Assembly (NCBI GenBank): GCA_015064255.1
Contig: SVSP01000002.1
Location: forward strand, 127,462-191,461
Source of the DNA: Oscillospiraceae bacterium
GTDB lineage: Bacteria; Bacillota; Clostridia; Oscillospirales; CAG-272
DNA length: 64,000 nucleotides
Direction of reading: 5' to 3'
Shown here: piece by piece, positions 44 through 40,732 of the stretch
How the letters are laid out: every line of letters begins with the position of its first letter
Numbering within the stretch: position 1 is the first letter of the stretch
The notes under the pieces: model-generated
Told to the model about the DNA's origin: nothing
The model's database searches: none
What the model saw: only the letters and a program-made list of their open reading frames with translations
Translations under genes and position numbers: made by a program

Positions 44-96
44 GGAACCCTTTTTTGTAAAAAGGGTTCCAAACCTCCCAAAAAACTTTACTTAAA
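44..96 (+). repeat. Modular hairpin element unit (hp2 palindrome + conserved box)
   Basis: Palindrome ggaaccc-ttttttgtaaaaa-gggttcc at 44-70, then tcccaaaaaactttacttaaa at 76-96. Same layout as the units at 3728, 20257, 28191, 38439 and 40559. Confidence 0.8.
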
Positions 97-138
97 TAGA
101 AGGACTAACTTGTTTCAGTAAAGCTTTTGAAAATTAAA

Positions 139-199
139 GAAACTTTTTTCAAAAAGGTTTCCCGAGACCCTTCCAAAAACTTTGCTTAAAGGGGGTCTC
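139..199 (+). repeat. Modular hairpin element unit (hp2 + box enclosed by gagaccc/gggtctc stem)
   Basis: gaaacttttttcaaaaaggtttc at 139-161. Box ttccaaaaactttgcttaaag lies inside the gagaccc...gggtctc stem at 164-199. Confidence 0.75.
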
Positions 200-317
200 T
201 ACAAACGTATTTTCTGTGTTAGCACAGCATAAATTCTTTTGTTTGTCTGAAAAACGGGATTTGATCTTTTCTGATCCCGTTTCACATACTTATTTTGCTT
301 CAAACAGGCTTTTTGCC

Positions 318-346
318 TTGACAAGCATAAAAATCTGTTATATAAT
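318..346 (+). promoter_or_regulatory. Consensus sigma-A type promoter for the ATP-grasp gene
   Basis: TTGACA at 318-323, 17-nt spacer, TATAAT at 341-346, about 70 nt upstream of the ATG at 414. Confidence 0.6.
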
Positions 347-413
347 CAATTTGTTATACAATAATATTATTGCGGAACGCGGAAGATGTTTCGCGGTAAG
401 GAGAAATTATAAT

Positions 414-1424
414 ATGTCAAAACTCGGATATGTTTTGCGCTGCGTGCGTAAAATGAACTATAAGAATATGCTGAATACGGTAAATACCGTGCATAAAAAG
501 TCGGGAAAGAACAGAGTAGGGCTTTTCTGCGATATGGTGTGGTGCGGATTTAAGTACGGAACGGGCCATAGAGATTATGACCTTAACGAGTGGTGGACGC
601 TGAATAAAGCGCAGAGAGCTACCTATATTACAAGAGGAATAAATAACTCTATCGTTACAAGACTCAACGATTCGTCGTATTACCATATTCTCGATAATAA
701 GATACATTTTAACGAGCATTTTTCCGATTGCCTCGGCAGAAAGTGGATAAATCTCGAAAACGCTTCGCTTGAAGAATTTGAGAGCTTTATGGAAAACACC
801 GAAAGCGTAATTGCAAAGCCGATAGACGCGACCTGCGGACAGGGCGTGGTGAAGCTTGTTAAGAGTAATTTCGAGTCGGTTGAAGCTATGTATAATCATA
901 TTAAAGAAGCGAGAGCGTTTCTTGTTGAAGAATACGTTGTTCAGCATAGCGAGATTTCAAAGCTTTATCCGCTGTCGGTAAACACTTTGCGTATCGTTAC
1001 CGTAACCTCGGACGACGGAACACCGCACGTCCTTTATGCGTTTATAAGAATGGGAAACGGCGGAAGAGTTGTGGATAATATAAACGCAGGCGGAATGGCT
1101 GCGCCTATCGACCTTGAAACAGGCAAAATCAGCGGAGTCGCTTTTGATAAGGATTACTCTTATTACGATACTCACCCATATACAGGCACACCGATAGTCG
1201 GACATCAGATACCGTTCTGGAAGGAGTCCTGCGATTTTGCGCTCGAAGCGTGTAAGCGCATTCCTCAGCTTCGTTATATCGGCTGGGACGTTGCGGTTAC
1301 AGAAAACGGACCGACCTTTATAGAGGGTAATCAGCACCCCGGACACGACTTCTTGCAGATGCCCCCGCACGTGCCCGATAAGATCGGAATACTTCCGAGA
1401 TTCAGACAGTTTGTGAATATATAA
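414..1424 (+). CDS. ATP-grasp fold protein (sugar-transfer-associated ATP-grasp-like)
   Basis: ORF 216..1424. The internal ATG at 414 is preceded by AAGGAGA. The C-terminal half resembles ATP-grasp ligases (KP.D...GQGV, NAGGMAAPID, WDVAVTENGP.FIEGN). Confidence 0.55.
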   Translation: MSKLGYVLRCVRKMNYKNMLNTVNTVHKKSGKNRVGLFCDMVWCGFKYGTGHRDYDLNEWWTLNKAQRATYITRGINNSIVTRLNDSSYYHILDNKIHFNEHFSDCLGRKWINLENASLEEFESFMENTESVIAKPIDATCGQGVVKLVKSNFESVEAMYNHIKEARAFLVEEYVVQHSEISKLYPLSVNTLRIVTVTSDDGTPHVLYAFIRMGNGGRVVDNINAGGMAAPIDLETGKISGVAFDKDYSYYDTHPYTGTPIVGHQIPFWKESCDFALEACKRIPQLRYIGWDVAVTENGPTFIEGNQHPGHDFLQMPPHVPDKIGILPRFRQFVNI

Positions 1425-1447
1425 ACTAAGTGAATGTGATTGTGCAT

Positions 1448-3698: not shown

Positions 3699-3701
3699 TT
3701 T

Positions 3702-3780
3702 CTCGGGGCTTTGCCCCGAGCCCCCCACCAAACCCCTTTTTGAAAAAAGGGGTTGGATCCCCAAAAACTTTTCTGAAAAG
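3702..3780 (+). repeat. Modular hairpin element, forward unit (hp1 + hp2 + box)
   Basis: hp1 ctcggggctttgccccgag at 3702-3720; hp2 ccaaacccctttttgaaaaaaggggttgg at 3728-3756; box ccccaaaaacttttctgaaaag at 3759-3780. Starts 4 nt after the pepF stop. Confidence 0.85.
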
Positions 3781-3794: not shown

Positions 3795-3830
3795 AACCCC
3801 GACAGATTTCTGTCGGGGTTATGTGTTTTT
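3795..3830. terminator. Bidirectional intrinsic terminator (pepF / TPR gene)
   Basis: aaccccgacagatttctgtcggggtt stem-loop with a T-run on the + strand and an A-run upstream. Lies between convergent genes. Confidence 0.7.
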
Positions 3831-4636
3831 TAAATATTTTCAAGCATTTTCTTTGCCTGCTCGACCATATAAAGCTTGTTTCCGTTTTCGACGATGAAAT
3901 CAAGCTTTTCCTTTGCTTTTTCTTTTTCACCGAGTCCGATATAGACCTTCGCATATACCATAGATGCGCAAACGCTGTCGAGTAGAGTTTTTCCTTTGAA
4001 GCTTTCAAGTGTTTCGAGTGCGGCTTTGAACTCTTTTTTTCTTAAATTTTCCAAAGCTTTTGCGAGAATTATCTCTTTGGAGTTTGACATACCCAGCTTT
4101 TTTGCGGAAATCATTGTTTTTTCGTGCCATAGAGACGCGTTTTCGAAGTCTCCGAGCTCGTCATACGCATCGGACATATTGTTGTAGTATATCATATTGA
4201 TAAATCCGCGGTAAGGTGAGAGAAACTTGTATTTGTCGGTGTCAAAAGTTTCAAGTGTTTCAATTACCCCGGAATATTCTCCCATATACCCGAGCGCGAC
4301 CGTGTAGTTGAGCAGAACGAGCTGATTTGCCACGCCGTGCTTTACGTACTTTAACTGCTCTTTTGTTTCGCTGAGCAGAGGAGTCGGGTCGCAGCCTTCG
4401 CTAAGTGCTTTTGACGCGGTCCGCATCAGCCTGTCCGAGGATGATTCTACAAAGCCGAATGATAAAACCGCAAAAAAGAGATAAAAGATAGCGTATATCC
4501 ACGCATCTGATCGTATTTTCCACAGAAAAGGTGAAATTGCCGCGCACAAAACGGCGGTTATTATTACAGTTGAAATGAGTTTGTGTTTTAGAAGTAACCG
4601 GTACATTTTAAGCCTCTGAATAACGTCTCTCGGCAA
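3830..4636 (-). CDS. Hypothetical membrane protein with TPR-like C-terminal repeats
   Basis: 268 aa with two N-terminal TM helices followed by helical-repeat-like sequence. No recognisable catalytic motif. Confidence 0.4.
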   Translation of the reverse strand: MPRDVIQRLKMYRLLLKHKLISTVIITAVLCAAISPFLWKIRSDAWIYAIFYLFFAVLSFGFVESSSDRLMRTASKALSEGCDPTPLLSETKEQLKYVKHGVANQLVLLNYTVALGYMGEYSGVIETLETFDTDKYKFLSPYRGFINMIYYNNMSDAYDELGDFENASLWHEKTMISAKKLGMSNSKEIILAKALENLRKKEFKAALETLESFKGKTLLDSVCASMVYAKVYIGLGEKEKAKEKLDFIVENGNKLYMVEQAKKMLENI

Positions 4637-4763: not shown

Positions 4764-7544
4764 TTACAGAATACTGAACGAAAACTCCTTTTCTCCGCCG
4801 TAAATACCTGCTTTTCCCGCATTTGCGCGGATAATAATAGTGATTTCAAAGCTGTCATCGCCGCAGGTGTCGAAATATATCTTTCGTCTTGTCGGCCAAG
4901 GATTCTGACTTCCCGTGTAATCTGACAGGTCGCTGTCAACAAGCCTTCCGTTTATCCAGACCTCATATTCGAGATAAACGATATGTCCGATACTGAGAAG
5001 TGCCTTTTTGTTTTCGCCCCTGATGGTCGGAATTTTCACCGTGTGACGGTAGAATTTCCAACCCTTGTCGAAATCCTGGAAGCTTCGAACCTCCATCTTC
5101 CACGAAACGAAGTTGTTCATATCGGTATCGGAAAGAACCATATTCGGGTCGGGCTTCTCGGGGAAGGTTACGTTTGAAACGGTTATCTCGTCTATCTTTC
5201 TTCCGTAGCTTTCGGGAAGATAAATATCCTGCTTCGCGTTTACAATGTCGAAGGTTATCGTTTCATCGGCGCATCCTTCACAGGAGATTACAACCGAAGC
5301 TTTCTCGGCACGGTCTTTTACCTGCATTATAGCCTGACATCTTCCTGCAAAAAGGTATCTTTCGCTTGCTTTTTCGGCTTCGTGGCTGTTTGGATTGCCG
5401 TTTCCGACGCCGATTATCTCACAGTCCCCTATAGCCTTGAATTTTATAAGATTGTCTGCATTGTGAACTACGCTTCCTGATGCATCGGTGAGGTAAACGT
5501 CTATGGCAGAAGCGTCCTTTCCGCTGTTGTCAAGCACTGCTTTGTGAGCCGTTGCAATAATTCTTGAGGGTGCGGACGGTGTTCTGAGTGTGTCCTCGCA
5601 GACTATTTCTCCGTCCTTGTATCCGATAGCGTTAAGTACGCCCGGAACAAATTCGATCTCCCAGTAGCACTGCGATGAGAGCTTGGACTCGCGTCTTCCG
5701 AGCGACTCCCCGTTGAGATAAAGCTCTACCTCGTCTGCGTTTGTTACGGTCATTATCTTGACCTTTTCGCCCTCTTTGTGATTCCAGTGGTGGAGTATTT
5801 TCATCATAGGCTCGTCTGTGAAGCAAGCGCGCATTACGTGTGCAGATGCTTTAGGGTATCCGCAGAGATCGAAAACTCCGAAAAGGGAAACAACCGTCGG
5901 GTACTTGAAGGGAGTGGGCTCTCCGCGGTAGTCAAATCCGGTCCAGATGAAGAGTCCTGCGATCCACTCACGCTCGGAAAGTACCTTCCACGCATCCTGC
6001 ATAGTGCAGCCCCACGGCACCGTATAGCTGTCAAAATCTTCGATGAGATTGTTGTCGAGATCTCTTGTCTGCTGTCCGCGGATCGCAAGTGCCGAAAGAT
6101 TTTCGCTTCCCGTTGTGGGTATGTTCGGATATTCGGCGCGGATCTTATCTACCGAAGCGTGGTTGTAATTTACGCCGAAAACGTCCATTTCGTATATTGC
6201 GCCCGTGCCTGTGTAGAAATTCGTGTTTTGCGCGGCAGTTGTCGGACGCGTAGGATCGAGCTTTTTTATCGCACTCTTGAGTCGTGCGTAAAGAGTACTC
6301 GATTCCTCGCTGCCCTGTATTGCCTCTTCGTTGAATATCGACCACATAATAACGCTCGGATGGTTGCGGTCGCGCTTTACCATAGTGCGGATGTTGAGAA
6401 GAGTATCGTCGTTTGCTTCAAATCGGCGGTTTTCGTCCATAACGAGTATTCCGTATTTGTCGCACGCGTCTAAAATTTCGCGCGCGGGAATATTGTGAGC
6501 ACATCTGTAGGCATTTACTCCCCACTCCTTGAGGATCTGTATTCTCATATCCTGAATGGAATCGGGGACGGCTACGCCGACACCCGCGTGGTCCTGATGA
6601 CAGCAAACGCCCTTGAGAAGAATATGTCTGCCGTTTAAGAAAAATCCCTTTTCGTTGTCAAAATAGAACGTTCTGAAGCCGAAATTCGTACTGTCCTCGT
6701 CAAGAAGCTCGTTTTCGCGGTAGATGCGGGCAAATGCCTTGTAGAGATTCGGCTCGTTAATATCCCAAATATCGGGGTCTTCGACGGTCATTTCAAGCTT
6801 TACAGTCTTTGTTTCGTCGAAATCCATAGAGTTGTTCTTTTTCGCTACGGCAACGCTTTCACCGTATCTGTCGAAAAGCTCTACCTCGACAGTAAACTCT
6901 CCGCTTGGCGTGTATGCGCTGTTTTCGACCTCAATTTCGGCAAATACACTCCATTTGTTGCCGTCGCCCTTGACAGGATTTATCCACAATCCGTTGTGCG
7001 CGATGTGGAGAAGCTCTTTCGCGTAGAGCTTTACGTGTCTGTAAATTCCCGTGCCTTCGTACCACCATCCTTCACAGCTTTTGCCGTCTACCTCTACAGA
7101 GATCAGGTTCGCGCTTTTGCCGAATTTGACACGGGGTGTGATGTCAAGAACGGTTTCGCTGTACGCGCTCGTAGAGCGTCCCGCGAGCGAACCGTTGAAA
7201 TATATATTGGAAAAAACCGAAATTCCTTCAAAAACGAGGGTAAAATGCTTGTTTATGTATTCAGTAGGCATTTCAAAGCTTTTTCTGTACCATACGTTTT
7301 CTCTTATCTTCGAGCCGTGAGAGGGCGGTGTGCTGTCATCGAATCCGACCTCGACTCTTCGGTCGTGAGGAAGATCAACTATGCGCCAATCGTCGTCGTT
7401 GTATTTGAAGCCCGCTTCGCCGTGTGCTGCACCCGTCTTAACGCTTGAATATATTTCGGCGTGGCTGTTCGCACCGTTTTCGATGTTGGTATCGTCCACA
7501 GCCTTGAATTTCCAGTTTTTATCTGCGTTAAATAAAGTTCTCAT
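4764..7544 (-). CDS. Glycoside hydrolase family 2 (beta-galactosidase/beta-glucuronidase-like)
   Basis: ORF 4764..7676; start set at the ATG at 7544 (MRTLFNADKNWKF) with GGAG upstream. Shows a GH2 sugar-binding/TIM-barrel pattern (NAYRCAHN, HPSVIMWSIFNE). Confidence 0.8.
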   Translation of the reverse strand: MRTLFNADKNWKFKAVDDTNIENGANSHAEIYSSVKTGAAHGEAGFKYNDDDWRIVDLPHDRRVEVGFDDSTPPSHGSKIRENVWYRKSFEMPTEYINKHFTLVFEGISVFSNIYFNGSLAGRSTSAYSETVLDITPRVKFGKSANLISVEVDGKSCEGWWYEGTGIYRHVKLYAKELLHIAHNGLWINPVKGDGNKWSVFAEIEVENSAYTPSGEFTVEVELFDRYGESVAVAKKNNSMDFDETKTVKLEMTVEDPDIWDINEPNLYKAFARIYRENELLDEDSTNFGFRTFYFDNEKGFFLNGRHILLKGVCCHQDHAGVGVAVPDSIQDMRIQILKEWGVNAYRCAHNIPAREILDACDKYGILVMDENRRFEANDDTLLNIRTMVKRDRNHPSVIMWSIFNEEAIQGSEESSTLYARLKSAIKKLDPTRPTTAAQNTNFYTGTGAIYEMDVFGVNYNHASVDKIRAEYPNIPTTGSENLSALAIRGQQTRDLDNNLIEDFDSYTVPWGCTMQDAWKVLSEREWIAGLFIWTGFDYRGEPTPFKYPTVVSLFGVFDLCGYPKASAHVMRACFTDEPMMKILHHWNHKEGEKVKIMTVTNADEVELYLNGESLGRRESKLSSQCYWEIEFVPGVLNAIGYKDGEIVCEDTLRTPSAPSRIIATAHKAVLDNSGKDASAIDVYLTDASGSVVHNADNLIKFKAIGDCEIIGVGNGNPNSHEAEKASERYLFAGRCQAIMQVKDRAEKASVVISCEGCADETITFDIVNAKQDIYLPESYGRKIDEITVSNVTFPEKPDPNMVLSDTDMNNFVSWKMEVRSFQDFDKGWKFYRHTVKIPTIRGENKKALLSIGHIVYLEYEVWINGRLVDSDLSDYTGSQNPWPTRRKIYFDTCGDDSFEITIIIRANAGKAGIYGGEKEFSFSIL

Positions 7545-7676
7545 AGTGTGAAAAATCTCCTTTACTTTATCGTTCCATCGATTGTAGCATATTTTGGGGG
7601 CTTTGTCAACAAGAAAGCAAGTGAAGGTATTAATTGATAAAAATGACAAAAATTCAAATAAATTTTCAAATCCCAC

Positions 7677-7704: not shown

Positions 7705-7908
7705 CAATTTTAGAATGGGGTAGGATGTTGGTTTTGTGTAAAATATACCCGAGCAGAGCATCCGAAGTCTGTTCTGTGTGTATGAGAATTTCGGTAAAAA
7801 GATATTCTTATATACAAAAAAGTACTTATCAGCCTCGGGCTGAAACAATAAAAAGTGAGAAAGGGTTTTGTTCACTGAAAAAAGTGGACAGCAAGGTAAG
7901 TTGGTTCT

Positions 7909-9273
7909 ATGAGCAACACAAACAAAAGCATATCCCTGCTCTTCGACGAAGGTACGTTTGTTGAAACCGGAGCCTATATCACAGTAGGAAATGACGACTC
8001 CAAGAAGTCGGGCGCTACTTGTGGCTACGGTGCTATAAACGGTGCTCTGGTCTTTGCGTTTGCACAGGACTTTTCTGTCGAAAAGGGCGCGCTCGGAAGA
8101 GCACAGGCTGAAAAAATTTGCGCACTTTACGATATGGCACTTAAAAACGGAGCTCCCGTTATAGGAGTATTCAGCAGTGCCGGCGTAAGAGTTAAGGAAG
8201 GAAGCGCAGTTCTCGGAGCATACGGTAAGCTTCTCGCAAAGATAAACGCGGCTTCCGGAGTTATTCCGCAGATCGCAGTTGTTGATGAAGTTTGTTCCGG
8301 TCTTTCGGCAACAGCGGCATCTATGTTCGATATCGTTATAGCGGACAGCGCATCTAAATTCTACATTACACCTCCCGGTGTTGCAAAGGTAAACGGTGTT
8401 TCCGAAGCGGGAAGCGCGGCATATGCCTTTGAAAACGGAAATATTGATATAGTTTGCGAAGGTAAGGAAGATTCTCTCGCAAAGGCACGCGATATCGTAT
8501 CCGTGCTTCCTCAGAATTCTGCTCAGGGCTATGCGTATGCGGAAGCAGATGACGACGCTTGCAGAGTAACTGCAGAGCTTGAAAACGCAAAGGACGTACG
8601 CGAAGCGGCAGCAATTATTGCAGATAACGGTCATTATACCGAGCTTAAGGCTGATTTTGCACCGAACGCTCTTACGGCTATCGCATCTCTCGGTCAGATC
8701 ACAGTAGGTATCTGCGGTCTCGGCGGAGCACTCGGCGCACCTGAAGCGAAGAAGATCTCTTCTTTCATTTCCTTCTGCGATAACTTCTCTATGCCTGTAA
8801 TTACAGTTCTCGACAGCTGCGGTGCAGATCACGAATCGGGCGATGAAATTCTCCCCGGAGAATTTGCAAAGCTTGCTTCGGCTTATGCAGGCGCAAACTG
8901 TCCTAAGATCACATATATTCTCGGTAAGGCTTACGGTGCGGCATTCACTCTCGTTGGCTCGAAGGCACTCGGCGCAGATATGGTTTACGCTGCTCCCAAG
9001 GCTGAAATCAGTGTGCTTTCTCCCGAAGCTTCGGTACAGTTTATGTTTGCAGACGAGATAAAGGCTGCTGACGACAGTGCCGCAAAGCGTGCAGAGCTTC
9101 TTAAGAAGTGGAAGAGCGAAGAAGCGCTTCCCGAAAAGGCTGCAGCAAACGGCTCTATCGATGACGTTGTTGCGTACGCAGAAACAAGAGCAAGAATTAT
9201 CTCTGCTGTTGAAATGCTCTTTGCAAAAATCTCGGGAAATCCCGCAAAGAAGCATTCAAAGCTTCCTTTCTGA
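7909..9273 (+). CDS. Acyl-CoA carboxyltransferase (12S / MmdA / PccB-like), short and divergent
   Basis: 454 aa with a two-lobed carboxyltransferase pattern (LLFDEGTFVE, GYGAINGALVFAFAQDF, NGAPVIGVFSSAGVRVKEG). An in-frame stop 12 nt upstream fixes the N-terminus. Confidence 0.7.
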   Translation: MSNTNKSISLLFDEGTFVETGAYITVGNDDSKKSGATCGYGAINGALVFAFAQDFSVEKGALGRAQAEKICALYDMALKNGAPVIGVFSSAGVRVKEGSAVLGAYGKLLAKINAASGVIPQIAVVDEVCSGLSATAASMFDIVIADSASKFYITPPGVAKVNGVSEAGSAAYAFENGNIDIVCEGKEDSLAKARDIVSVLPQNSAQGYAYAEADDDACRVTAELENAKDVREAAAIIADNGHYTELKADFAPNALTAIASLGQITVGICGLGGALGAPEAKKISSFISFCDNFSMPVITVLDSCGADHESGDEILPGEFAKLASAYAGANCPKITYILGKAYGAAFTLVGSKALGADMVYAAPKAEISVLSPEASVQFMFADEIKAADDSAAKRAELLKKWKSEEALPEKAAANGSIDDVVAYAETRARIISAVEMLFAKISGNPAKKHSKLPF

Positions 9274-9328: not shown

Positions 9329-9745
9329 ATGTATATTCCCGTACTCGTAGATCTGACATCGGCGGACGTAACAAAGCCTATTGAAAATATGGCTGACCGT
9401 CTTTCGGCAGCAGGACAGACAATCGTTCTCGGAATGCTTGCGGTATTTTCGGTTCTTGCGATACTTTGGCTCGTTCTTTCTATTATGGGTAAGTTCTTTA
9501 CAACAGAAGTTAAAGCTCCCAAGGAAGAAAAGAAAGAAGAACCTGTAGCTCCGGCAGCACCCGCAGCACCCGCAGCTCCCGTGGCACAAGCACCTGCTCC
9601 CGTTGCAAACGATGAGGAGATCGTTGCCGCTATCACCGCGGCAATCTCGCTTATGCTTGATAAGCCGCAGACAGCTTTCCGCGTAGTTTCCTTCAGACAG
9701 GCATCGCGTGAGGCTTTCCGCAGAAACAATATTAACAGAAACTAA
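9329..9745 (+). CDS. OadG/MmdD-family small membrane subunit of Na+-translocating decarboxylase
   Basis: One TM helix (IVLGMLAVFSVLAILWLVLSI), an Ala/Pro linker, and the DEEIVAAITAAI motif typical of the OadG family. The start could instead be the internal Met. Confidence 0.65.
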   Translation: MYIPVLVDLTSADVTKPIENMADRLSAAGQTIVLGMLAVFSVLAILWLVLSIMGKFFTTEVKAPKEEKKEEPVAPAAPAAPAAPVAQAPAPVANDEEIVAAITAAISLMLDKPQTAFRVVSFRQASREAFRRNNINRN

Positions 9746-9786
9746 CCTTATTAATAAATAATCCAAGAAAGAGAAGGTTTTATACA

Positions 9787-10185
9787 ATGAGAAAATTCAG
9801 CGTTACAGTAAACGGTACAGTATATGAAGTTGAAGTAGAGGAAATCGGCGCAAACGAATCTGCTCCCGTAGCAGCTCCCAAGGCAGCTCCCGCACCCGCA
9901 GCGGCTCCTAAGGCAGCTCCCGCACCTGCAGCGGCTCCTGCAGCAGCTTCCAAGGCGGCAGCTCCCACATCGGGAACACCCGTTAAGGCTCCGATGCCCG
10001 GTACGATAGTTAAGGTAAAGGTATCCGAAGGTCAGGCAGTTAAGAACGGCGACGTTGTCTGCGTTATCGAGGCTATGAAGATGGAAAGCGATATTTGCGC
10101 TCCCTGCGACGGAACGGTTGGAACTATCGTTACCAAGAGCGGCGCATCGGTCAACACAGACGATCTTCTTCTCACTATTGCTTAA
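9787..10185 (+). CDS. Biotin carboxyl carrier protein (1.3S / MmdC-like)
   Basis: 132 aa with an Ala/Pro-rich linker and the biotinyl-lysine motif VIEAMKMES. Confidence 0.85.
   Translation: MRKFSVTVNGTVYEVEVEEIGANESAPVAAPKAAPAPAAAPKAAPAPAAAPAAASKAAAPTSGTPVKAPMPGTIVKVKVSEGQAVKNGDVVCVIEAMKMESDICAPCDGTVGTIVTKSGASVNTDDLLLTIA
9880..9939 (+). repeat. In-frame 30-nt tandem duplication in the BCCP linker
   Basis: aaggcagctcccgcacc[c/t]gcagcggctcct occurs twice (KAAPAPAAAP x2) with one mismatch. Confidence 0.8.
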
Positions 10186-12916: not shown

Positions 12917-12920
12917 TTGT

Positions 12921-13005
12921 TCAGTAAAGTTTTTGCCTTAAGGGACGCTGTTCCTTAAGAAACCCTGCGGGCGTTTGAAAAAGCTCGACCAAAACTTTTA
13001 AAAAC
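12921..13005. repeat. Degenerate modular hairpin element copy
   Basis: Box-rc tcagtaaagtttttg at 12921-12935; hp1-like cttaagg...ccttaag at 12937-12959; linker-like aaccc; decayed hp2 (gtttgaaaaagc); decayed box accaaaacttttaaaaac. Confidence 0.55.
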
Positions 13006-13284: not shown

Positions 13285-13311
13285 CTTTTCAGAAAAGTTC
13301 TTGGCGGGTAC
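13285..13311 (-). repeat. Truncated modular hairpin element, minus orientation
   Basis: The minus strand reads gtacccgccaagaacttttctgaaaag (linker, hp2 left arm fused to box). It begins 2 nt after the stop of the minus-strand gene 13314..14141. Confidence 0.6.
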
Positions 13312-16215: not shown

Positions 16216-16249
16216 GACATTTTATTAAATTGTTTGTGGAGGCATAGAT

Positions 16250-28590: not shown

Positions 28591-28610
28591 AGTAAAAGAA
28601 AGGCAGAGAA

Positions 28611-29354
28611 ATGAAGCAATCTATTTTTATTGTGATTTCCAACCGAAAGGTTGCAAAAAACACATTTGAAATGAAGCTTTCGGGCGATATTTCACATATT
28701 ACTGCACCCGGTCAGTTTGTCAATATTCAGCTTGACGGATTCTATCTCCGCAGACCTATTTCGGTTTGCGATGCAGAAAACGGAGTGCTGACACTTGTAT
28801 ATAAAGTGGTCGGCAAGGGAACGGAAAAGATGGCTGAAATGACAGGCGGAGAAGAGCTTGATATACTTACAGGCCTTGGTAACGGATATGACCTCACAAA
28901 ATGCGGAGATAACCCTCTGCTTGTGGGCGGCGGCGTAGGACTTCCTCCGATGTTTCTGCTCGCAAAAGAGCTTGTAAAAGCGGGTAAAAAGGTTAAGGTC
29001 ATAGCAGGATTCGGAAGCGCAGACGAGGTTTTCTATAAAGAAGAGTTCGAAAATATAGGCGCAGAGTTTACCGTAACCACCGTTGACGGAAGCTGCGGAA
29101 TCAAGGGTTTTGTAACAAACGCTCTTGAAACTGTCGGAGAATATTCCTCAATATGCTCGTGCGGTCCCGAGCCGATGCTCAAAGCGCTTTACAGCGCAAC
29201 AAGCGCTCCCGCGCAGTTCAGCTTTGAGGAACGTATGGGCTGCGGATTCGGCGCTTGTATGGGTTGCTCGTGCAAGACAGTTACAGGATATAAACGTATT
29301 TGCAAGGACGGCCCCGTTCTTTGCAGAGAGGAGATATTATGGGAAAAGCAGTAG
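28611..29354 (+). CDS. pyrK: Dihydroorotate dehydrogenase electron-transfer subunit
   Basis: 247 aa with an FAD/NAD-binding pattern and the C-terminal 2Fe-2S cysteines CGFGACMGCSC. Confidence 0.85.
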   Translation: MKQSIFIVISNRKVAKNTFEMKLSGDISHITAPGQFVNIQLDGFYLRRPISVCDAENGVLTLVYKVVGKGTEKMAEMTGGEELDILTGLGNGYDLTKCGDNPLLVGGGVGLPPMFLLAKELVKAGKKVKVIAGFGSADEVFYKEEFENIGAEFTVTTVDGSCGIKGFVTNALETVGEYSSICSCGPEPMLKALYSATSAPAQFSFEERMGCGFGACMGCSCKTVTGYKRICKDGPVLCREEILWEKQ

Positions 29355-35278: not shown

Positions 35279-35280
35279 TT

Positions 35281-35922: not shown

Positions 35923-37197
35923 ATGATAAAAATATTTGAAGATATAAAAAATATAGATAAAACTCTCCTTTTTAACCGTTCGCTTTCGGCATCGGGTGTT
36001 GAGGATATCGTAAGTGATATAATTTCAAACGTGCGCAGCCGCGGCGACGAGGCACTTTTTGAATACACAGAGCGTTTCGACAGAGCAAAGCTGACATCTC
36101 TTGAGGTATCAAAGGAAGAAATCGAAAAGGCTGTCAGCGAGATCGGCGAAGAATTTATGGGAGTTTTGCGCCGTGCGGCTGAAAATATTGAAGCATTCCA
36201 CAAAAGACAGGTAAGAAACAGCTTTATTATAAACGAGAAAAACGGCGTGGTTACCGGACAAAAGGTGATTCCTCTTGCCAAGGTCGGAATTTACGTTCCG
36301 GGTGGCACGGCGGCTTATCCGTCCTCCGTGCTTATGAATGCAATTCCCGCGAAGCTCGCAGGAGTAGGCGAGATCATTATGGTTTCACCCGCAAGCGGAG
36401 GAAAGATTGCTCCCGCTATTCTTGCGGCGGCATACGTGGCAGGAGTTGACCGCGTGTTCGCTCTCGGCGGAGCGCAGGCTGTTGCAGCACTCGCATACGG
36501 AACAAAGAGTGTTCCTATGGTTGACAAGATAGTCGGACCGGGTAACGCGTTTGTTGCAGAGGCGAAGCGTCAGGTTTACGGTCAGGTTGCGATAGATATG
36601 ATCGCAGGGCCGAGCGAAATTCTCGTAATTGCAGATAAAAATTCAAATCCCTCTTACGTTGCCGCCGATATGCTTTCGCAGGCAGAGCACGACAAAAATT
36701 CGACCGCGGTTCTTATTACCGACAGCATTGAGCTTGCTGAAAAGGTTTCGGACGAGCTTGAACGTATGATCCCTCTTCTTCCGAGAGCCGAGATCGCCCG
36801 CGCTTCTGTCGATAACAACGGAAAGATCATCGTTACCGACGATCTCCTCGAAGCGATTGAGCTTTCAAACGATATCGCTCCCGAGCATCTTGAGCTTTGT
36901 CTTGACGATCCTTTTGCTGTTCTTGACCGTGTGAAGAATGCAGGATCGGTATTTATGGGAAGATATTGTCCCGAAGCTCTCGGCGACTACTTCGCAGGAC
37001 CCAATCACACACTTCCCACCAGCGGAACTGCAAGATTCTCAAGCCCTCTTTCTGTTGACGACTTCGTTAAGAAAATGCAGTACACCTACTTCACCAAGGA
37101 AGCGCTCGGCGAGGTTGCAGACGACGTTATGGCTTTTGCCGAAAAAGAAGGTCTCTCCGCACACGCACGCAGCGTAGGAGTACGCAAAGGGACTTAG
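35923..37197 (+). CDS. hisD: Histidinol dehydrogenase
   Basis: 424 aa; QAEHD motif and GDYFAGPNHTLPT. The stop TAG lies inside repeat hairpin 37193-37211. Confidence 0.95.
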   Translation: MIKIFEDIKNIDKTLLFNRSLSASGVEDIVSDIISNVRSRGDEALFEYTERFDRAKLTSLEVSKEEIEKAVSEIGEEFMGVLRRAAENIEAFHKRQVRNSFIINEKNGVVTGQKVIPLAKVGIYVPGGTAAYPSSVLMNAIPAKLAGVGEIIMVSPASGGKIAPAILAAAYVAGVDRVFALGGAQAVAALAYGTKSVPMVDKIVGPGNAFVAEAKRQVYGQVAIDMIAGPSEILVIADKNSNPSYVAADMLSQAEHDKNSTAVLITDSIELAEKVSDELERMIPLLPRAEIARASVDNNGKIIVTDDLLEAIELSNDIAPEHLELCLDDPFAVLDRVKNAGSVFMGRYCPEALGDYFAGPNHTLPTSGTARFSSPLSVDDFVKKMQYTYFTKEALGEVADDVMAFAEKEGLSAHARSVGVRKGT

Positions 37198-37336
37198 GGT
37201 TCTGCCCTAAGAACCCGCCAAAACCCTTTTTGTAAAGAAGGTTAAAACGATTTGCGCGCAAATCGTTTAAGAATTCCCAAAAACTTTACTAAAAGGGGGA
37301 ATTATAATTGTAGGGACAGGCGTCCTCGACTGTCCG
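37193..37336 (+). repeat. Modular hairpin element copy (hp1 + interrupted hp2 + box + hp4)
   Basis: hp1 cttagggttctgccctaag at 37193-37211. hp2 is interrupted by the perfect 24-nt palindrome aaacgatttgcgcgcaaatcgttt at 37245-37268. Box at 37275-37295; hp4 tgtagggacaggcgtcctcgactgtcc at 37309-37335. Confidence 0.85.
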
Positions 37337-37360: not shown

Positions 37361-38440
37361 ATGAGTAAATATATGAACAAAAAATACGCCGAGCTTACGG
37401 CGTACACACCCGGCGAACAACCGCTTGGTGTCAAATACATAAAGCTTAATACAAACGAGTCCCCCTTTCCGCCCTCTCCCGACGTGCTCGTGTCGATAGG
37501 CTACGGCGAGCTTTCCGATCTTCGTCTTTACTCCGACCCCGATTGCCGCGGACTTCGCAAGGCGCTCGGAGAGTTCTACGGACGCGAAACCGACGAGATT
37601 TTCGTTTCAAACGGCTCGGACGACATTCTGAACTTCGCATTTATGGCGTTTTCCGAAAGGGGCGTTGTCTTTCCCGATATAACCTACGGTTTTTACGAGG
37701 TCTATGCGAAGCTGCACGGTGTAAATTACGAAAAAAAGCCTCTTTGCGATGATTTCACCATAAAAACCGAAGATTATCTTAACGAAAACGGCAAACTTAT
37801 AGTTATCGCAAATCCAAATGCACCGACCGGAATTTTTAAACCGCTTGGCGAAATCGAGCGTATACTTAAGGCAAATCCCGACAGCGTTGTGCTTGTCGAT
37901 GAAGCGTACATTGATTTCGGCGGCGAAAGCGCCCTGAAACTGCTTGACAGCTACAAAAATCTGCTTGTCGTACGTACTTATTCCAAGTCAAGAAGCCTTG
38001 CGGGAGCGCGTCTTGGATTCGCTTTCGCGGATAAAGAAATTATTGCCGATCTTAATAAGCTGAAATTCTCGACCAATCCGTACAGCATCAACCGACTTAC
38101 ATTAATTGCGGGCGAAGCGGCTCTTCGGAACGGAAAATATTATGAGGACAACGCGAAAAAGATCATCGAAACACGAGAATACGTTACAGAAAAACTACGC
38201 GAAATGGGCTTTGAGGTTATAGAGTCTGCGGCAAATTTCGTTCTTGCAGGACACGACGCGATTTCCGGCTCGCTTTTTGCTGAAGAAATGAAAAAACGCG
38301 GTATTCTGATAAGACATTTCTCGGGCGTACGTCTTGAAAAATATAACCGCATAACGATAGGAACTCGCGCCGAAATGGACGCTTTCCTCTTCGCCGCTGA
38401 GAAGATTATAGCCAAGGGCGCTGCCCTTGGAACCCGCTAA
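37361..38440 (+). CDS. hisC: Histidinol-phosphate aminotransferase
   Basis: 359 aa class-II aminotransferase with the PLP lysine region RTYSKSRSLAG. The last 9 codons are encoded by repeat hp1 and linker. Confidence 0.9.
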   Translation: MSKYMNKKYAELTAYTPGEQPLGVKYIKLNTNESPFPPSPDVLVSIGYGELSDLRLYSDPDCRGLRKALGEFYGRETDEIFVSNGSDDILNFAFMAFSERGVVFPDITYGFYEVYAKLHGVNYEKKPLCDDFTIKTEDYLNENGKLIVIANPNAPTGIFKPLGEIERILKANPDSVVLVDEAYIDFGGESALKLLDSYKNLLVVRTYSKSRSLAGARLGFAFADKEIIADLNKLKFSTNPYSINRLTLIAGEAALRNGKYYEDNAKKIIETREYVTEKLREMGFEVIESAANFVLAGHDAISGSLFAEEMKKRGILIRHFSGVRLEKYNRITIGTRAEMDAFLFAAEKIIAKGAALGTR

Positions 38441-38567
38441 AGAACTTTTTGAAAAAAGTTCTTTGGAATCTCAAAAACTTTGCTGAAAAAATTAGTAAGA
38501 ATCCAACCCCTTTTAAGAAAAGTTTTTGAAAGGGCTTGTGGAAACTTTTTTCAAAAAGTTTCCACAA
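38412..38567. repeat. Composite modular hairpin element (forward + reverse units, inverted-repeat structure)
   Basis: hp1 at 38412-38430; hp2 at 38439-38464; box at 38469-38490; box-rc at 38507-38534; hp2 ttgtggaaacttttttcaaaaagtttccacaa at 38536-38567. Confidence 0.9.
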
Positions 38568-38586
38568 AGAGAAAGGAAATAAAATA

Positions 38587-39174
38587 ATGAGAAACAGTGA
38601 AATTTTGCGCAAAACCGCAGAAACAGATATTGAACTGAAGCTTGACCTTGACGGCAAGGGCGAGAGCGATATTGATACGTCCTGTCCGTTTCTTGACCAT
38701 ATGCTGACACTCTTTGCAAAGCACTCAAGATGTATGCTCTACGTAAGATGCAAGGGCGATACAGAGGTTGATTATCATCACACGGTCGAGGATATCGGAA
38801 TTTGCCTCGGCGACGCGATAAAGGAATCACTCGGTAATAAAATGGGAATCGCACGTTACGGAAATGCGATAATTCCGATGGACGAGGCACTTCTTCTCGT
38901 GTCTATCGATCTTTCGGGCAGAGCAACGCTTGCATTTTCGACCGAAGGACTCACCGAAAAGGTGGGAGATTTCGATACAGAGCTTGTTAAGGAATTTTTC
39001 GCGGCGCTTGTCAGAAAATCGGAAATGACACTCCATATAAGACAGCTTGCAGGTGAAAATACACACCATATCATCGAAGGCATTTTCAAGGCATTCGCGG
39101 CGGCTCTCCGCGCGGCAGTAGCACTTGACTCGGCAAGAGCAGGTGAGATTCCTTCTACAAAGGGCGTGCTCTGA
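38587..39174 (+). CDS. hisB: Imidazoleglycerol-phosphate dehydratase
   Basis: ORF 38536..39174 starts inside the repeat, so the ATG at 38587 (MRNSEILRKTAETDIEL) is used. Motifs HHTVED and HHIIEG. Confidence 0.9.
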   Translation: MRNSEILRKTAETDIELKLDLDGKGESDIDTSCPFLDHMLTLFAKHSRCMLYVRCKGDTEVDYHHTVEDIGICLGDAIKESLGNKMGIARYGNAIIPMDEALLLVSIDLSGRATLAFSTEGLTEKVGDFDTELVKEFFAALVRKSEMTLHIRQLAGENTHHIIEGIFKAFAAALRAAVALDSARAGEIPSTKGVL

Positions 39175-39791
39175 TGATAGCGATAATTGACTACGGAGTG
39201 GGAAATCTTTTCTCGCTCGGCTCGTCGCTTGCCGCACTCGGCATAGATTCGGTAGTTACGGATGACGAAGCAGTAATAAGAAACGCGGATAAAATAATTT
39301 TGCCCGGAGTCGGCGCGTTCAGAGATGCGTCCGAAAAGCTCGCCGAGCGCGGATTTGATAAGCTTCTCAAAGAGCTCGCGGCGCGGGGCAAGCCGATTAT
39401 GGGAATTTGCCTCGGTATGCAGCTTCTTTTCGATGAAAGCTATGAGTTCGGCAGATATAAAGGTCTCGGACTTATAAAAGGCAGCGTTAAGCCGATAGCG
39501 GACATTATTCCCGCAGACCTTAAAATCCCTCATATCGGTTGGAACGGACTGATTTTCCCCGAAAATAAGGATAAAAACGAGATATTTAAATACATTAACG
39601 AGGGCGACTGCGTTTATTTCGTTCACTCATACTACGCAACCGATTGCGATGATGCGGTAATTGCAAACACCTCGTACGGTGCGCCCCTTACAGCCGCAGT
39701 TGCTTCGGGAAATGTTTACGGCTGTCAGTTCCACCCCGAAAAAAGCGGAAACGTGGGACTTTCGATAATAAAGGCATTTGCCGAGCTTTAA
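39174..39791 (+). CDS. hisH: Imidazole glycerol phosphate synthase, glutamine amidotransferase subunit
   Basis: 205 aa with the catalytic GICLGMQ motif and C-terminal QFHPEKS. Confidence 0.9.
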   Translation: MIAIIDYGVGNLFSLGSSLAALGIDSVVTDDEAVIRNADKIILPGVGAFRDASEKLAERGFDKLLKELAARGKPIMGICLGMQLLFDESYEFGRYKGLGLIKGSVKPIADIIPADLKIPHIGWNGLIFPENKDKNEIFKYINEGDCVYFVHSYYATDCDDAVIANTSYGAPLTAAVASGNVYGCQFHPEKSGNVGLSIIKAFAEL

Positions 39792-39812
39792 TTACATTAA
39801 AAGGACAAAACT

Positions 39813-40526
39813 ATGATAATTTTTCCTGCAATAGATCTTTACGAGGGCAAGGCGGTGCGTCTTTACAAGGGCGACTATGCACAGCTCACGGTTTATGATG
39901 AAAATCCGATAAATACGGCAAAAAAATTTGTAGCAGAAGGCGCGACACATATCCATATGGTTGACCTTGAGGGCGCGCGTGACGGCAACACCCCGAATTT
40001 CGAAACAGTAAAACAGATAGTTACTTCGACCGATCTTTTTGTTGAGATCGGAGGCGGAATACGCGATATGGAAACTATCGACAAATATCTTTCTATCGGT
40101 GTTGGACGTGTTATTCTCGGTACGGCGGCTGTTTCAAGCGAGGGATTTGTAGAGCGTGCCGTAGCTAAATATGGCGACAAAATAGCAGTCGGGGCAGATA
40201 TAAAGGACGGCGAGATAGCCGTTAAAGGCTGGGTAGAAAAAAGCGGTGTCAAGAGCGACGATTTCTTTGAAAAAATGCAGAAGATCGGCGTAAAAACTGT
40301 TATTTGCACCGATATCTCGCGCGACGGAGCTATGCGCGGTACAAATCTTGAGCTTTACAAGTCGCTTTCTGAAAAATATGATATGAACATAATTGCTTCG
40401 GGCGGTGTTTCTTCGATGGACGACGTTATCGCACTTCGCAAAATGAACGTTTACGGCGCGATAATCGGCAAGGCTTATTACACCGGCGCTATCAAGCTCT
40501 CGGATGCGCTTAGGGCTCTGCCCTAA
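39813..40526 (+). CDS. hisA: ProFAR isomerase
   Basis: 237 aa; MIIFPAIDL N-terminus and (beta/alpha)8 HisA pattern. The last codons and the stop lie in repeat hairpin 40509-40527. Confidence 0.9.
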   Translation: MIIFPAIDLYEGKAVRLYKGDYAQLTVYDENPINTAKKFVAEGATHIHMVDLEGARDGNTPNFETVKQIVTSTDLFVEIGGGIRDMETIDKYLSIGVGRVILGTAAVSSEGFVERAVAKYGDKIAVGADIKDGEIAVKGWVEKSGVKSDDFFEKMQKIGVKTVICTDISRDGAMRGTNLELYKSLSEKYDMNIIASGGVSSMDDVIALRKMNVYGAIIGKAYYTGAIKLSDALRALP

Positions 40527-40732
40527 GAACCCGCCAAGGGCGCTGCCCTTGGAACTCGCCAAAGAACTTTTTGTAAAAAGTTCTTTGGAATCTCAAAAAC
40601 TTTACTGAAGGAAATATTATTATTTCTTTTTAAGAAAAGTTTTTGAATGGGTTTGGGAAAACTTTTTTCAAAAAGTTTTCCCAAGAGAACGTTTTAGAAA
40701 GGCATGGAAAACCTTTTATTAAAAGGTTTTCC
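40509..40732. repeat. Composite modular hairpin element (two hp1, forward unit, reverse unit, extra hp2)
   Basis: hp1a at 40509-40527; hp1b at 40534-40552; hp2 at 40559-40588; box at 40591-40610; box-rc at 40627-40650; hp2 at 40653-40684; hp2-like ggaaaaccttttattaaaaggttttcc at 40706-40732. Confidence 0.9.

Follow-up and report, generated by a model that had tools for sequence, protein, structure and literature searches.

An apparently undescribed modular hairpin repeat family between the genes of a gut Oscillospirales lineage

Among the closest described systems are the REP and BIME elements of Enterobacteria and Pseudomonas (REPIN-RAYT), which are known mRNA 3' stabilizers and whose families are usually genus-specific. 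Like them, the units described here are short extragenic palindromes in hundreds of copies, noncoding, placed after stop codons between co-transcribed genes and transcribed with them, found single or in alternating orientation with other short motifs, and built on covarying stems. They differ in having no GTAG or CGTC tag and no RAYT that could be seen, in conserving an A/T-rich hairpin tip and a separate 13-nt box instead of the foot of the stem, in coming as two unlike types, and in having a core that is common to several phyla. An earlier reading of this DNA, made without database searches (the sequence-only reading), had not recognized it as BOX, RUP, ERIC, Correia, or classical REP. The Correia or nemis elements of Neisseria and the RUP and BOX elements of Streptococcus pneumoniae share with the units a length of about 100 to 160 nt, long inverted repeats, intergenic or operonic placement, and co-transcription into long hairpins that may overlap gene ends; nemis elements are RNase III substrates, and BOX is likewise modular (boxA, boxB, boxC). 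The units differ from these in a host lineage that is neither neisserial nor pneumococcal; moreover, no TA duplication is seen, the Clostridial box faces inward, and half-units often stand alone. PATEs, which are nonautonomous IS200/IS605 derivatives, resemble the units in their asymmetric ends each with its own hairpin, their lack of a target-site duplication (TSD), and their biased orientation, but the units have no TnpA or TnpB nearby and are frequently solo, and no conserved tetra- or pentanucleotide target can be defined for them.

The window, by which we mean the whole 64-kb stretch analyzed, comes from an uncultured gut lineage of Ruminococcaceae/Oscillospirales, and the existence of a modular hairpin repeat family between its genes is confirmed. 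A covariance model from 42 units, scanned unfiltered over the entire window, gives 13 units with E < 1e-3, all in the first 41 kb, with no significant match in the last 23 kb (41–64 kb). The dispersed modular family proposed by the sequence-only reading is thereby borne out, and every position that it listed contains a unit, two decayed copies giving weaker matches; its count of at least 10 loci comes down to 8 intergenic regions. The box CCCAAAAACTTTNCTGAAAAG is matched 10 times with up to 3 mismatches versus 0.01 expected, and the hp2 core plus box, TTTTTGAAAAAAGN{8,16}CAAAAACTTTNCT, has 8 exact matches versus 0 expected. A repeat search of the window recovers families D1–D4, D6, D7, and D9–D11. 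No Rfam family matches the repeat at either gathering or permissive thresholds, and no description was found in the searchable literature; we consider the family real and apparently undescribed.

There are 2 types of unit, found singly or in arrays. Type A consists of hp1, a linker, hp2, and the box, and type B of hp2, a spacer that is pyrimidine-rich (purine on the other strand), and the box. The long perfect hairpin hp2 has a free stem sequence and a nearly invariant tip, CTTTTTGAAAAAAG, and the box, CAAAAACTTTNCT, also nearly invariant, begins 3 to 9 nt after it. Preceding hp2 in type A is hp1, a GC-rich hairpin that had been read as a 7-bp stem with a 5-nt loop but whose stem measures 8 bp and whose loop is 3 nt long (GGGC-NNN-GCCC). 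A recurring four-part architecture had been proposed; it describes type A, but only about half of the units carry hp1, which is absent from those at 44–96, 139–199, and 28331–28383 and from every reverse unit. Forward and reverse units had been taken for 2 copies of one arm, and they turn out to be consistently different types. Terminal inverted repeats of about 55 nt had also been proposed; inverted repeats of 51–56 nt do exist, but their conserved box is internal and not terminal. A sequence of about 35 nt, T5-G-A6-G ... C-A5-C-T3, is invariant in both orientations and is retained even in a variant (in the relative L206) without the outer stem. The stems covary strongly, with 92% of cells paired, 17 of 21 base pairs altered on both sides, 137 double-change cells versus 40 in shuffles, and a structure score of 0.424 versus 0.07–0.18 in slid controls. 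The covarying stems reach 9 bp beyond the conserved core, and at the orthologous hisA|hisF junction the stem changes are compensatory.

At the left end of the window, a forward B-type unit (15–98, +; covariance model 39.7 bits, E = 1.3e-6) has hp2 at 44–70 (GGAACCCTTTTTTGTAAAAAGGGTTCC) and its box at 77–97. Beside it, at 111–199, a single hp2 hairpin (139–161) lies between a reverse box (113–133), which the earlier list had overlooked, and a forward box (172–192) within the loop closed by a GAGACCC/GGGTCTC stem (164–199); the model matches this element on both strands (111–192, −; 114–192, +), the two E values being 4.6e-7 and 4.7e-4, and nhmmer also finds it. An A-type unit at 3701–3780 (+; 82.1 bits, exact box) begins 3 nt past the stop codon of an M3 oligopeptidase gene assigned by Pfam, with hp1 at 3702–3720, hp2 at 3728–3756, and box at 3760–3780, followed by an ordinary bidirectional terminator hairpin (3795–3831). 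At 12920–13005 (+) there is a reverse-box remnant (12920–12935) and a decayed short-variant A unit with an hp1-like hairpin (12936–12959), a short hp2 (12969–12987), and a box (12988–13005), matched by the model at 12938–13007 with E = 0.005; L018 and the SIG645 loci have intact copies of this short variant. A box remnant (2 mismatches) with an ACCCG linker lies at 13285–13310 (−; E = 0.85), immediately past the stop codon that ends gene 13314–14141; as this gene is on the minus strand, the remnant is forward relative to it. Between an epimerase gene and a 150-aa ORF, an A-type unit at 20231–20310 (+; 88.9 bits, with motif matches) has hp1 at 20232–20250, hp2 at 20257–20286, and box at 20290–20310.

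The remaining units are within the pyr and his operons, as assigned by Pfam. The A-type unit at 28165–28244 (+; 98.2 bits) starts at the base next to the carB stop codon, with hp1 at 28166–28184, hp2 at 28191–28220, and box at 28224–28244. It is followed by a forward unit without a clear hp1 at 28311–28383 (+; 61.4 bits, exact box; hp2 28331–28359, box 28363–28383) and by a reverse B-type unit at 28534–28590 (−; 42.9 bits, match 28534–28626), which has a reverse box (28534–28554), a Shine-Dalgarno-like spacer GGGAAGGTG, and hp2' (28561–28590), and ends 20 nt upstream of the pyrK start codon. At hisD|hisC, the A-type unit 37192–37298 (+; 39.8 bits, match 37192–37290) provides the hisD stop codon TAG from hp1 (37193–37211) and has its hp2 broken up by an extra hairpin (37244–37268) before the box (37276–37296). 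At hisC|hisB, the hisC ORF runs through hp1 (38412–38430) of the A-type unit 38411–38490 (+; 94.3 bits) and stops at 38438–38440 within hp2 (38437–38466), with the box at 38470–38490; the reverse B-type unit there, 38505–38567 (−; 49 bits, match 38510–38586), has its reverse box at 38510–38530 and hp2' at 38538–38565 and is 21 nt upstream of the hisB start codon. At hisA|hisF, the A-type unit 40509–40612 (+; 88.9 bits, match 40533–40612) has a doubled hp1, of which hp1a (40509–40527) contains the hisA stop codon and hp1b occupies 40534–40552, then hp2 (40559–40588) and box (40592–40611). The predicted RNA fold pairs this box with the reverse box (40627–40647) of the B-type unit 40627–40684 (−; 51.2 bits, match 40627–40719; hp2' 40655–40682), in a duplex of about 20 bp. 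An extra hp2-like A/T-rich hairpin (GGAAAACCTTTTATTAAAAGGTTTTCC, 40706–40732), conserved in L203, lies 8 nt upstream of the hisF start codon.

The usual order between co-directional genes is gene, forward A, reverse B, gene, as at carB|pyrK, hisD|hisC, hisC|hisB, and hisA|hisF. Upstream ORFs now terminate inside the unit, in hp1 or hp2, and B units are found 8 to 25 nt upstream of start codons. A 5-nt SD-like word is present in the spacer of 64% of B units versus 6% of A units, and about half of the genes downstream of B units have no other SD. No U-tails occur at units, which show neither promoter nor terminator excess; their RNA is strongly structured on folding (z = −6.7 and −9.7), and the flanking genes have no function in common.

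Outside the window the family is abundant. A scan of the collection gives at least 114 loci with matches, and nhmmer over 0.8 Mb made up of the window and loci, other genomes being covered as 8-kb pieces only, gives about 210 hp2-plus-box units spread over some three dozen MAGs of gut Clostridia. On rough gene maps made for this analysis, 205 of the 210 are intergenic, and single B units between co-directional genes are reverse in 26 cases versus forward in 12, a moderate bias. No unit occurs in the 636 kb of 80 his loci from more distant Clostridia, nor in the sister genome L207 (HisF 83% identical), where the his operon is compact with overlapping genes; occupied junctions correspond to 4-nt gene overlaps in an element-free relative. 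Orthologous junctions differ between relatives in occupancy and range from 138 to 633 nt: in L206 hisD|hisC is empty, hisH|hisA and hisF|hisI are filled there only, by a variant family, and in L083, L066, L065, and L018 the units are arranged differently at orthologous sites. The hisC|hisB and hisA|hisF units of the window are 94% alike but match their own orthologues at only 78–86%, the L203 hisC|hisB variant is 94–96% like the L202 hisA|hisF variant, and orthologous junctions are overall as similar as paralogous ones. The sharing of variants by different junctions across genomes indicates copying or gene conversion; against our explanation, gene conversion alone might account for it, with no transposition involved. 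Units remain intact between genomes whose four-fold sites are 37–65% identical, which requires continuing turnover or conversion or else host-level selection, and they are also on 3 viral or prophage contigs.

The repeat is not confined to the Oscillospirales lineage. The same core unit is arrayed in a MAG labeled Planctomycetota, and it lies inside unannotated 156–162-bp MITEs of vinegar bacteria in the Acetobacteraceae (Novacetimonas, Komagataeibacter, Acetobacter). Each MITE holds 2 inverted copies of the unit, in the form stem, CTTTTTGAAAAAAG, stem, then ACC and CAAAAACTTTTCT, the reversed second copy being one that the search pattern had not demanded. The outer TIR is 15–17 bp (GAGRCTGTTTGAAAA), the flanks TTA/TTA, TCA/TCA, and TTA/TTA are TNA target duplications, and an IHF-like site adjoins the unit. 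TIRs and TNA duplications occur in this group and not in the Clostridial copies; the boxes face outward in the MITEs and inward in the Clostridial composites, and the MITEs have no hp1 whereas Clostridial type A does. We think that the Clostridial units are probably nonautonomous hairpin-bearing repeats of the REP/BIME or MITE kind that have spread through the intergenic spaces of the lineage. The MITE/REP-like character given to them at the outset stands as far as behavior goes, but the Clostridial copies have no demonstrable TSD or parent IS and no clean empty/filled pair at the strain level, and the missing TSD and pair count against our explanation. That the box, their most conserved part, is inside the composite and not at its ends is unusual for a DDE-type MITE and counts against it as well.

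A different reading, which we hold to be unlikely, is that the units are host cis-acting RNA elements, an operon punctuation whose mobility is merely its historical origin, with cistron-end hairpins and the box duplex steering processing and differential stability or translation and being kept by selection. It would suit units that sit within his and pyr operons without terminator tails, in a consistent order of forward A after stops and reverse B before starts, with an SD-like spacer in B and the predicted box duplex; the stems covary, also at one orthologous junction, the non-Watson-Crick pairs on the mRNA strand of reverse units are G:U in 19 cases versus A:C in 7, and the organism encodes RNase J, against which 5' hairpins protect. 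However, the invariant sequences are equally conserved both ways, so that an RNA-binding factor would meet complementary, different sequences. G:U pairs are scarce overall (about 2% of cells) and fall below other mismatches, the wobble bias does not flip in forward units and owes much to one recurrent position, and about one third of single units are oppositely oriented. Sister lineages run the same operons without units, variants move between loci, and phage contigs carry units, as do the TIR- and TSD-bearing MITEs of Acetobacteraceae.

The window contains no RAYT or transposase gene, as the sequence-only reading had said; no mobilizing gene lies between flanking units or among the recurrent neighbor proteins of units, tblastn with an approximate IS200 TnpA query gives no match, and no Y1 transposase is found in the window plus 0.8 Mb of loci, a search of low power with 8-kb pieces per genome. 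That none appears in the sequences searched also counts against our explanation. The same genome also has a separate GTAG-tagged palindrome family, a hint of a possible RAYT. Another reading takes the units for strict REPs, single-stranded DNA hairpins that a single-copy RAYT (an IS200/IS605-like HUH Y1 transposase) recognizes and mobilizes, A and B being the unlike ends of a REPIN-like doublet. In its favor, the palindromes are short, extragenic, perfect, and covarying, they alternate in orientation and are accompanied by extra motifs in the manner of BIMEs, and hairpin A is consistently unlike hairpin B, much as the left end of an IS200/IS605 element is unlike its right end. The undetectable TSD, the persistence at orthologous sites with family-wide homogeneity, and the GTAG-tagged family would also fit. 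We find this reading quite unlikely: GTAG and CGTC tags are missing from the hp1 and hp2 units, the low-powered search found no Y1 transposase, and the TIRs with 3-bp TNA duplications of the Acetobacteraceae relatives point to a DDE transposase. That the units are bound as duplex DNA by a host protein, either nucleoid-associated or regulatory, with the A/T tracts as a bendable operator, is very improbable in spite of the roughly 35-nt sequence invariant in either orientation, the survival of the core in L206 after loss of the outer stem, and the IHF-like site in Acetobacteraceae, because a duplex binder would not demand stems covarying 9 bp past the core, because patchy, lineage-specific high copy number, phage contigs, and MITE context are unexpected for a regulon, and because the flanking genes share no function.

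For nonautonomous repeats, the invariant hp2 tip and box would be the recognition site of a putative trans-acting DNA enzyme encoded elsewhere in the genome, either a transposase or a HUH/RAYT-like nuclease, which would spread the copies while ectopic gene conversion homogenizes them. Insertions would persist only where expression is not killed, which would account for their intergenic location and their bias in orientation. In the forward direction, A units would supply stop codons and hairpins without U-tails; in reverse, B units may offer the next gene a purine tract resembling a Shine-Dalgarno sequence, along with an A-rich leader. Being co-transcribed with the operon, the units would fold into stable RNA hairpins, structures that probably protect the 3' and 5' ends of the mRNA or serve as points of processing. 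Any such role in the mRNA would have come as a by-product or an added benefit and would not be why the family exists; in their behavior the repeats resemble mobile "junk" DNA, tolerated by the cell within its operons.

The box, CCCAAAAACTTTNCTGAAAAG, has 10 matches in the window at up to 3 mismatches where 0.01 are expected, and a pattern joining the core of the hp2 hairpin to the box, TTTTTGAAAAAAGN{8,16}CAAAAACTTTNCT, has 8 exact matches where shuffles give 0. A repeat search of the window recovers the same families together with inverted repeats of 51-56 nt. A covariance model made from 42 full units of many genomes and applied unfiltered to the whole window finds 13 units at E < 1e-3; between 41 and 64 kb it has no significant match. 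The hairpin repeat family is therefore real, and the same scan bears out every coordinate that the sequence-only reading had listed between 44 and 40732, including both decayed copies, which are picked up at weaker scores than the other units. That list had overlooked a reverse box at 113-133. Other parts of it need correction: the units occupy 8 intergenic regions rather than 10 or more loci, the hp1 hairpin has an 8-bp stem and 3-nt loop rather than 7 bp and 5 nt, and about half of the units have no hp1.

Two types of unit can be told apart, hp2 and the box being common to both. Type A has hp1 (19 nt, for example CCAAGGGC-GCT-GCCCTTGG), a linker AACCCG, hp2 (about 30 nt) and, after a 5-nt spacer (for instance AACTT or AATCC), the box. 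Type B lacks hp1, its hp2 usually starts GGRAAC or CAGAAAC, its spacer before the box is longer and pyrimidine-rich (CACCCT, ACCTCC and similar), and its box is often enclosed by a short C-rich/G-rich stem. A 5-nt word resembling a Shine-Dalgarno (SD) sequence occurs in the spacer of 64% of B units versus 6% of A units. The sole fixed part of hp2 is its tip, CTTTTTGAAAAAAG, with five pairs and a UGAA loop, while the outer 8-9 pairs are free in sequence and keep their complementarity. The 42-sequence alignment has pairing in 92% of its cells and changes on both sides of 17 of its 21 pairs; double-change cells number 137 versus 40 in shuffles, and the real structure scores 0.424 against 0.07-0.18 for slid controls, with G:U pairs scarce at about 2%. 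As RNA, the element regions fold far above shuffles (z of -6.7 and -9.7), and box and reverse box are predicted to form a duplex of about 20 bp at places where forward and reverse units are neighbours. A G/C-rich repeat forming an intrastrand triplex, TMECO, has been described for Enterobacteria (PMC4666352), but such a triplex is rejected for the present units because its third strand needs C opposite G in the purine motif, and the outer stem also obstructs it. A motif pair of the type CCCTCTCC...GGGAGAGG that resembles TMECO (PMC4666352) is seen at 4780-4900 of L204, a relative's locus, within the 507-nt hisA|hisF junction.

The window's HisF protein is on deposit from a MAG with the label Ruminococcaceae. 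The gene content of the window is housekeeping only, as judged by Pfam on 49 ORFs and by the called genes of locus L115, which cover most of the rest. Units are located 3' of the M3 peptidase stop codon, behind an epimerase gene, at the carB|pyrK junction, and in the his operon at hisD|hisC, hisC|hisB and hisA|hisF. Forward A units start from 29 nt before to 9 nt after the upstream stop codon. The stop codons of hisD, hisC and hisA all fall within hp1 or hp2, and the hisC product ends in ...EKIIAKGAALGTR in the window versus ...EKIIKK in the related locus L066. Reverse B units end 8-25 nt upstream of the next start codon, and about half of the genes behind a B unit have no other SD. A terminator or promoter role is rejected: unlike intrinsic terminators, the units have no U-tract (hp1 is followed by AACCCG, hp2 by AAYC or AAGA) and sit inside operons, a terminator scan of the window gives 11 where 15.6 are expected, with an extra hairpin at 40705-40733 as its sole match in an element region, and no promoter enrichment is found at units. 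Lacking U-tails, and with neither promoters nor terminators in excess, the units are read through.

Some other features of the window deserve mention. A perfect sigma-70-type promoter, TTGACA-17-TATAAT, lies at 318-346 upstream of an ATP-grasp gene, whose start is probably the ATG at 414 and not the GTG at 216; with that start the units at 15-199 would be upstream of the promoter and outside the 5' UTR. A 970-aa GH2 glycosidase gene (4764-7676, minus strand) is missing from an otherwise syntenic stretch of L083, another genome's locus, which is 89.5% identical to the window on both sides of the gap, and this difference in gene content adjoins an element-bearing intergenic region. At 9538-9963, an Ala/Pro-rich linker in the gamma and biotin-carrier subunits of a decarboxylase operon is encoded by degenerate 9- to 30-nt tandem repeats (one unit being GCACCCGCAGC), which look ordinary. 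At gathering score, Rfam finds in the window only RNase P RNA (15826-16217, plus strand; 261.8 bits, bacterial class A) and a single tRNA (62276-62349, minus strand); class A fits a Clostridia-type rather than a Bacilli-type Firmicute.

A pattern with 25 specified bases, scanned over species-representative genomes, has matches at at least 114 loci, so copies exist beyond the window to which the sequence-only reading was confined. The matches listed come mostly from gut or rumen MAGs, with the labels Clostridia, Eubacteriales, Oscillospiraceae, Ruminiclostridium or Lachnospiraceae (taxonomic labels throughout are as on the records), and their sources include sheep, deer, goat, rabbit, human and others. 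With these genomes represented by 8-20-kb pieces, nhmmer counts about 210 hp2+box units in the listed loci and the window, 205 of 210 being intergenic on our own rough dicodon-based gene map. On that map, the most frequent arrangements between co-directional genes are a reverse B unit (26 cases), a forward B unit (12), a forward A unit (5), and a forward A followed by a reverse B unit (5), an orientation bias that is real and not absolute. Longer arrays exist, in which duplicated hp1 hairpins, palindromes tagged with GTAG and a structured repeat of 280 nt also occur. Within the Clostridia his-operon comparison the family is lineage-restricted. As negative controls we took 80 his loci (636 kb) from a metagenome scan with HisB, mostly relatives at 58-67% identity, and these more distant Clostridia have 0 units. 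The closer L207 (HisF 83% identical) also has 0, and 5 of 6 examined junctions of its his operon overlap in ATGA or GTGA fashion. Three contigs of viral or prophage origin also have units, and one of these contigs comes from the same sample as the window; the Clostridial composite has no blastn match in phage collections or the PLSDB plasmid collection.

Presence/absence polymorphism, for which the sequence-only reading had proposed comparing relatives, is found when the his operon of the window is set beside those of seven relatives with HisF 83-98% identical. In the window, L202-L205 and L208, the junctions hisD|hisC, hisC|hisB and hisA|hisF are filled, with 138-633 nt and a varying number of units, and hisH|hisA and hisF|hisI are empty. 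In L207 each of these junctions is empty, with hisD|hisC overlapping. In L206 (HisF 89% identical), hisD|hisC is again an empty overlap, hisC|hisB has 118 nt that are other than this unit family, and hisH|hisA, hisA|hisF and hisF|hisI are filled by a variant family that keeps TTTTTGAAAAAAG, five bases and CAAAAACTTTACTGA and has lost the outer hp2 stem. The variant has the form GGTCGC-TTTTTGAAAAAAG-CTCCG-CAAAAACTTTACTGACGAAAAAG, with copies at 3820-3880, 4810-4870, 5770-5830 and 9767-9940 of L206, among whose sites are his junctions that are empty in the window.

The number and order of units also vary at orthologous sites in L083, L066, L065 and L018. The window A units of hisC|hisB and hisA|hisF are 94% identical to each other versus 78-86% to their orthologues, a hisC|hisB variant of L203 and L066 (GCAAAGGAAAC...CTCTGCAC) matches the hisA|hisF unit of L202 at 94-96% identity, and over whole junctions paralogous positions are as similar as orthologous ones. 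Because unit variants ignore orthology and paralogous junctions match orthologous ones in similarity, this is concerted evolution, with units copied between loci by transposition or ectopic gene conversion. We drop the proposition that orthologous units are conserved above synonymous sites, as gapped alignment gives 62% identity on shuffled sequence; together with the equal similarity of paralogous and orthologous junctions, this control points to family-wide homogeneity and not to locus-specific purifying selection. An exact-protein look-up for strain-level empty sites returns only identical contigs and one odd junction, L117:1-110, on a 1.4-kb metagenome contig. There an identical hisB is joined straight to an unrelated upstream gene with no element, and homology to the window begins exactly at the ribosome-binding region; this junction reflects a true rearrangement at the element or else a chimera of the assembly.

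The pattern also matches Novacetimonas hansenii, Komagataeibacter, Acetobacter garciniae, and one MAG whose record is labelled Planctomycetota. In the Acetobacteraceae the unit sits within a 156-162-bp element with terminal inverted repeats (TIRs) of 15-17 bp, GAGRCTGTTTGAAAA. Three of six complete copies have 3-nt flanking duplications of the form TNA (TTA/TTA, TCA/TCA, TTA/TTA), and single element ends have T-N-A-rich flanks; the IS1031 group of the IS5 family typically makes TNA duplications of 3 bp. The interior has two inverted units with boxes outward, and since the reversed copy lies outside what the search pattern demands, it argues for homology and not a search artefact. The element is also present, unannotated, on Komagataeibacter and Novacetimonas plasmids. 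An IS630 copy adjoins one Novacetimonas MITE, but its ends are unrelated, so we reject it as the parent and take the adjacency as coincidental.

Bacterial genomes are known to carry small dispersed repeats, and the units belong to that kind, behaving like REP/BIME and Correia, BOX or RUP-type elements. What places them above a routine new repeat is that overlapping operon junctions have been invaded again and again, and that their core recurs in Acetobacteraceae MITEs. A permissive Rfam scan of four element regions gives sub-threshold miRNA-type hairpin noise only, and we find no description of the family in the literature on REP/RAYT/MITE-type repeats in Clostridia, Ruminococcaceae or Acetobacteraceae. 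Its description as a MITE/REP-like composite holds as resemblance to both kinds, and the units fall cleanly into neither. Like REP/BIMEs they are short extragenic palindromes in high copy (hp1 19 nt, hp2 about 30 nt, 205 of 210 intergenic), in mosaic clusters that alternate orientation and include other motifs, as where a forward A and a reverse B unit stand between genes; unlike REPs they have no GTAG/CGTC foot tag in alignments of 42 A units and 186 matches. Like MITEs they are polymorphic for presence between related genomes (L202-L208 and the window). Forward and reverse Clostridial units form 50-56-nt inverted repeats in which the arms are different unit types and the conserved box is internal; the Acetobacteraceae relatives carry true TIRs. 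At Clostridial unit borders no target-site duplication is recognisable, and no parent IS with matching ends is found, either among the genes bracketed by units or in IS630. As the sequence-only reading had said, the window holds no RAYT (Y1 HUH) or transposase gene (Pfam on 49 ORFs and L115 called genes). No mobilising gene comes from tblastn of the 8-20-kb pieces with an IS200 TnpA query, from clusters of recurrent neighbour proteins at the loci, or from genes bracketed by units, which are housekeeping only.

Two other repeats share these arrays. One is a low-copy GTAG-tagged palindrome, GTAGGGACNGGCGTCCNCGACNGTCC, at 28469-28494 (minus) and 37310-37335 (plus) of the window, both within arrays of the main family, and at L044:4519-4544, L049:1511-1536 and L204:676-701. 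Its stems covary (GGACCG/CGGTCC versus GGACAG/CTGTCC). A GTAG tag is a hallmark of REP-superfamily elements, and this palindrome hints at a RAYT somewhere in the genome. The other, also dispersed, is about 130-280 nt long and has three hairpins that are conserved, among them CCGCCGCG-GGGAAA-CGCGGCGG and AAGGAAGGGA-GGAA-TCCCTTCCTT; it is seen at 13008-13284 of the window, L018:2147-2308, L092:292-424 and 7871-7996, L079:3045-3192, L204:1997-2262 (inside the his operon), L007:4976-5114, and in L022, L110 and L019. In the window, L092 and L204 at least, units flank it on both sides, one forward and one reverse; in the other loci it stands beside units, in either orientation. It has no Rfam family match and could be a small RNA gene or another mobile element.

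The most likely reading, which we hold with moderate confidence, is that the units are a non-autonomous mobile or recombining repeat. An enzyme whose gene lies elsewhere would recognise the invariant hairpin tip and box as DNA; such DNA-level recognition is supported by the invariance of the same sequence in both orientations, by patchy phyletic distribution and high copy number, and by the exchange of variants between loci. Survival of units would be filtered by their effects on gene expression, and this filter would account for their placement. Forward A units would supply stop codons and tail-less hairpins; in reverse B units a purine tract would read as a Shine-Dalgarno followed by an A-rich leader, which could make insertion into formerly overlapping, coupled junctions possible. 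RNA-level effects are documented for REP and Correia elements and are plausible for these units: the hairpins may protect 3' ends, may shield 5' ends from RNase J, and the box duplex may be cleaved.

The main rival, that the units primarily serve a host RNA function, we think unlikely: the orientation rules keep it in play, as does a suggestive excess of G:U for reverse units when read on the mRNA strand (19 versus 7, in a G:U versus A:C strand test in which forward units show no flip and one recurrent position dominates), but the sequence is invariant in either orientation, G:U pairs are scarce, the family is missing from sister lineages, and its relatives are located inside MITEs. We would also give rather low odds to a bolder proposal, that tip and box are the site of a putative enzyme or host factor exchanged among Bacillota, Acetobacteraceae and perhaps Planctomycetota, and that the Clostridial units have been domesticated as portable operon spacers. 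Each unit would then offer stops in several frames, end-protecting hairpins and an SD-like tract. Genes that overlap and are coupled in translation could in this way become cistrons with their own initiation and their own stability, and selection plus gene conversion would keep the units intact.

Its high copy number and lineage specificity make the family a practical marker in gut and rumen metagenomes, useful for binning, for typing strains and for pairing phages with hosts, and the same properties account for some assembly breaks. Gene callers run ORFs through units, which makes for systematic MAG annotation errors at gene ends and starts. A core of about 35 nt is invariant and common to bona fide MITEs of culturable Acetobacteraceae, so that the mobilising or binding factor can be approached there by experiment, as it cannot in the uncultured gut organisms. 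For the organisms themselves, the finding means that apparently mobile hairpin modules split once-overlapping genes of essential operons (his, pyr, pur) without destroying them, and rewrite protein C-termini and ribosome-binding regions repeatedly and differently among sister species.
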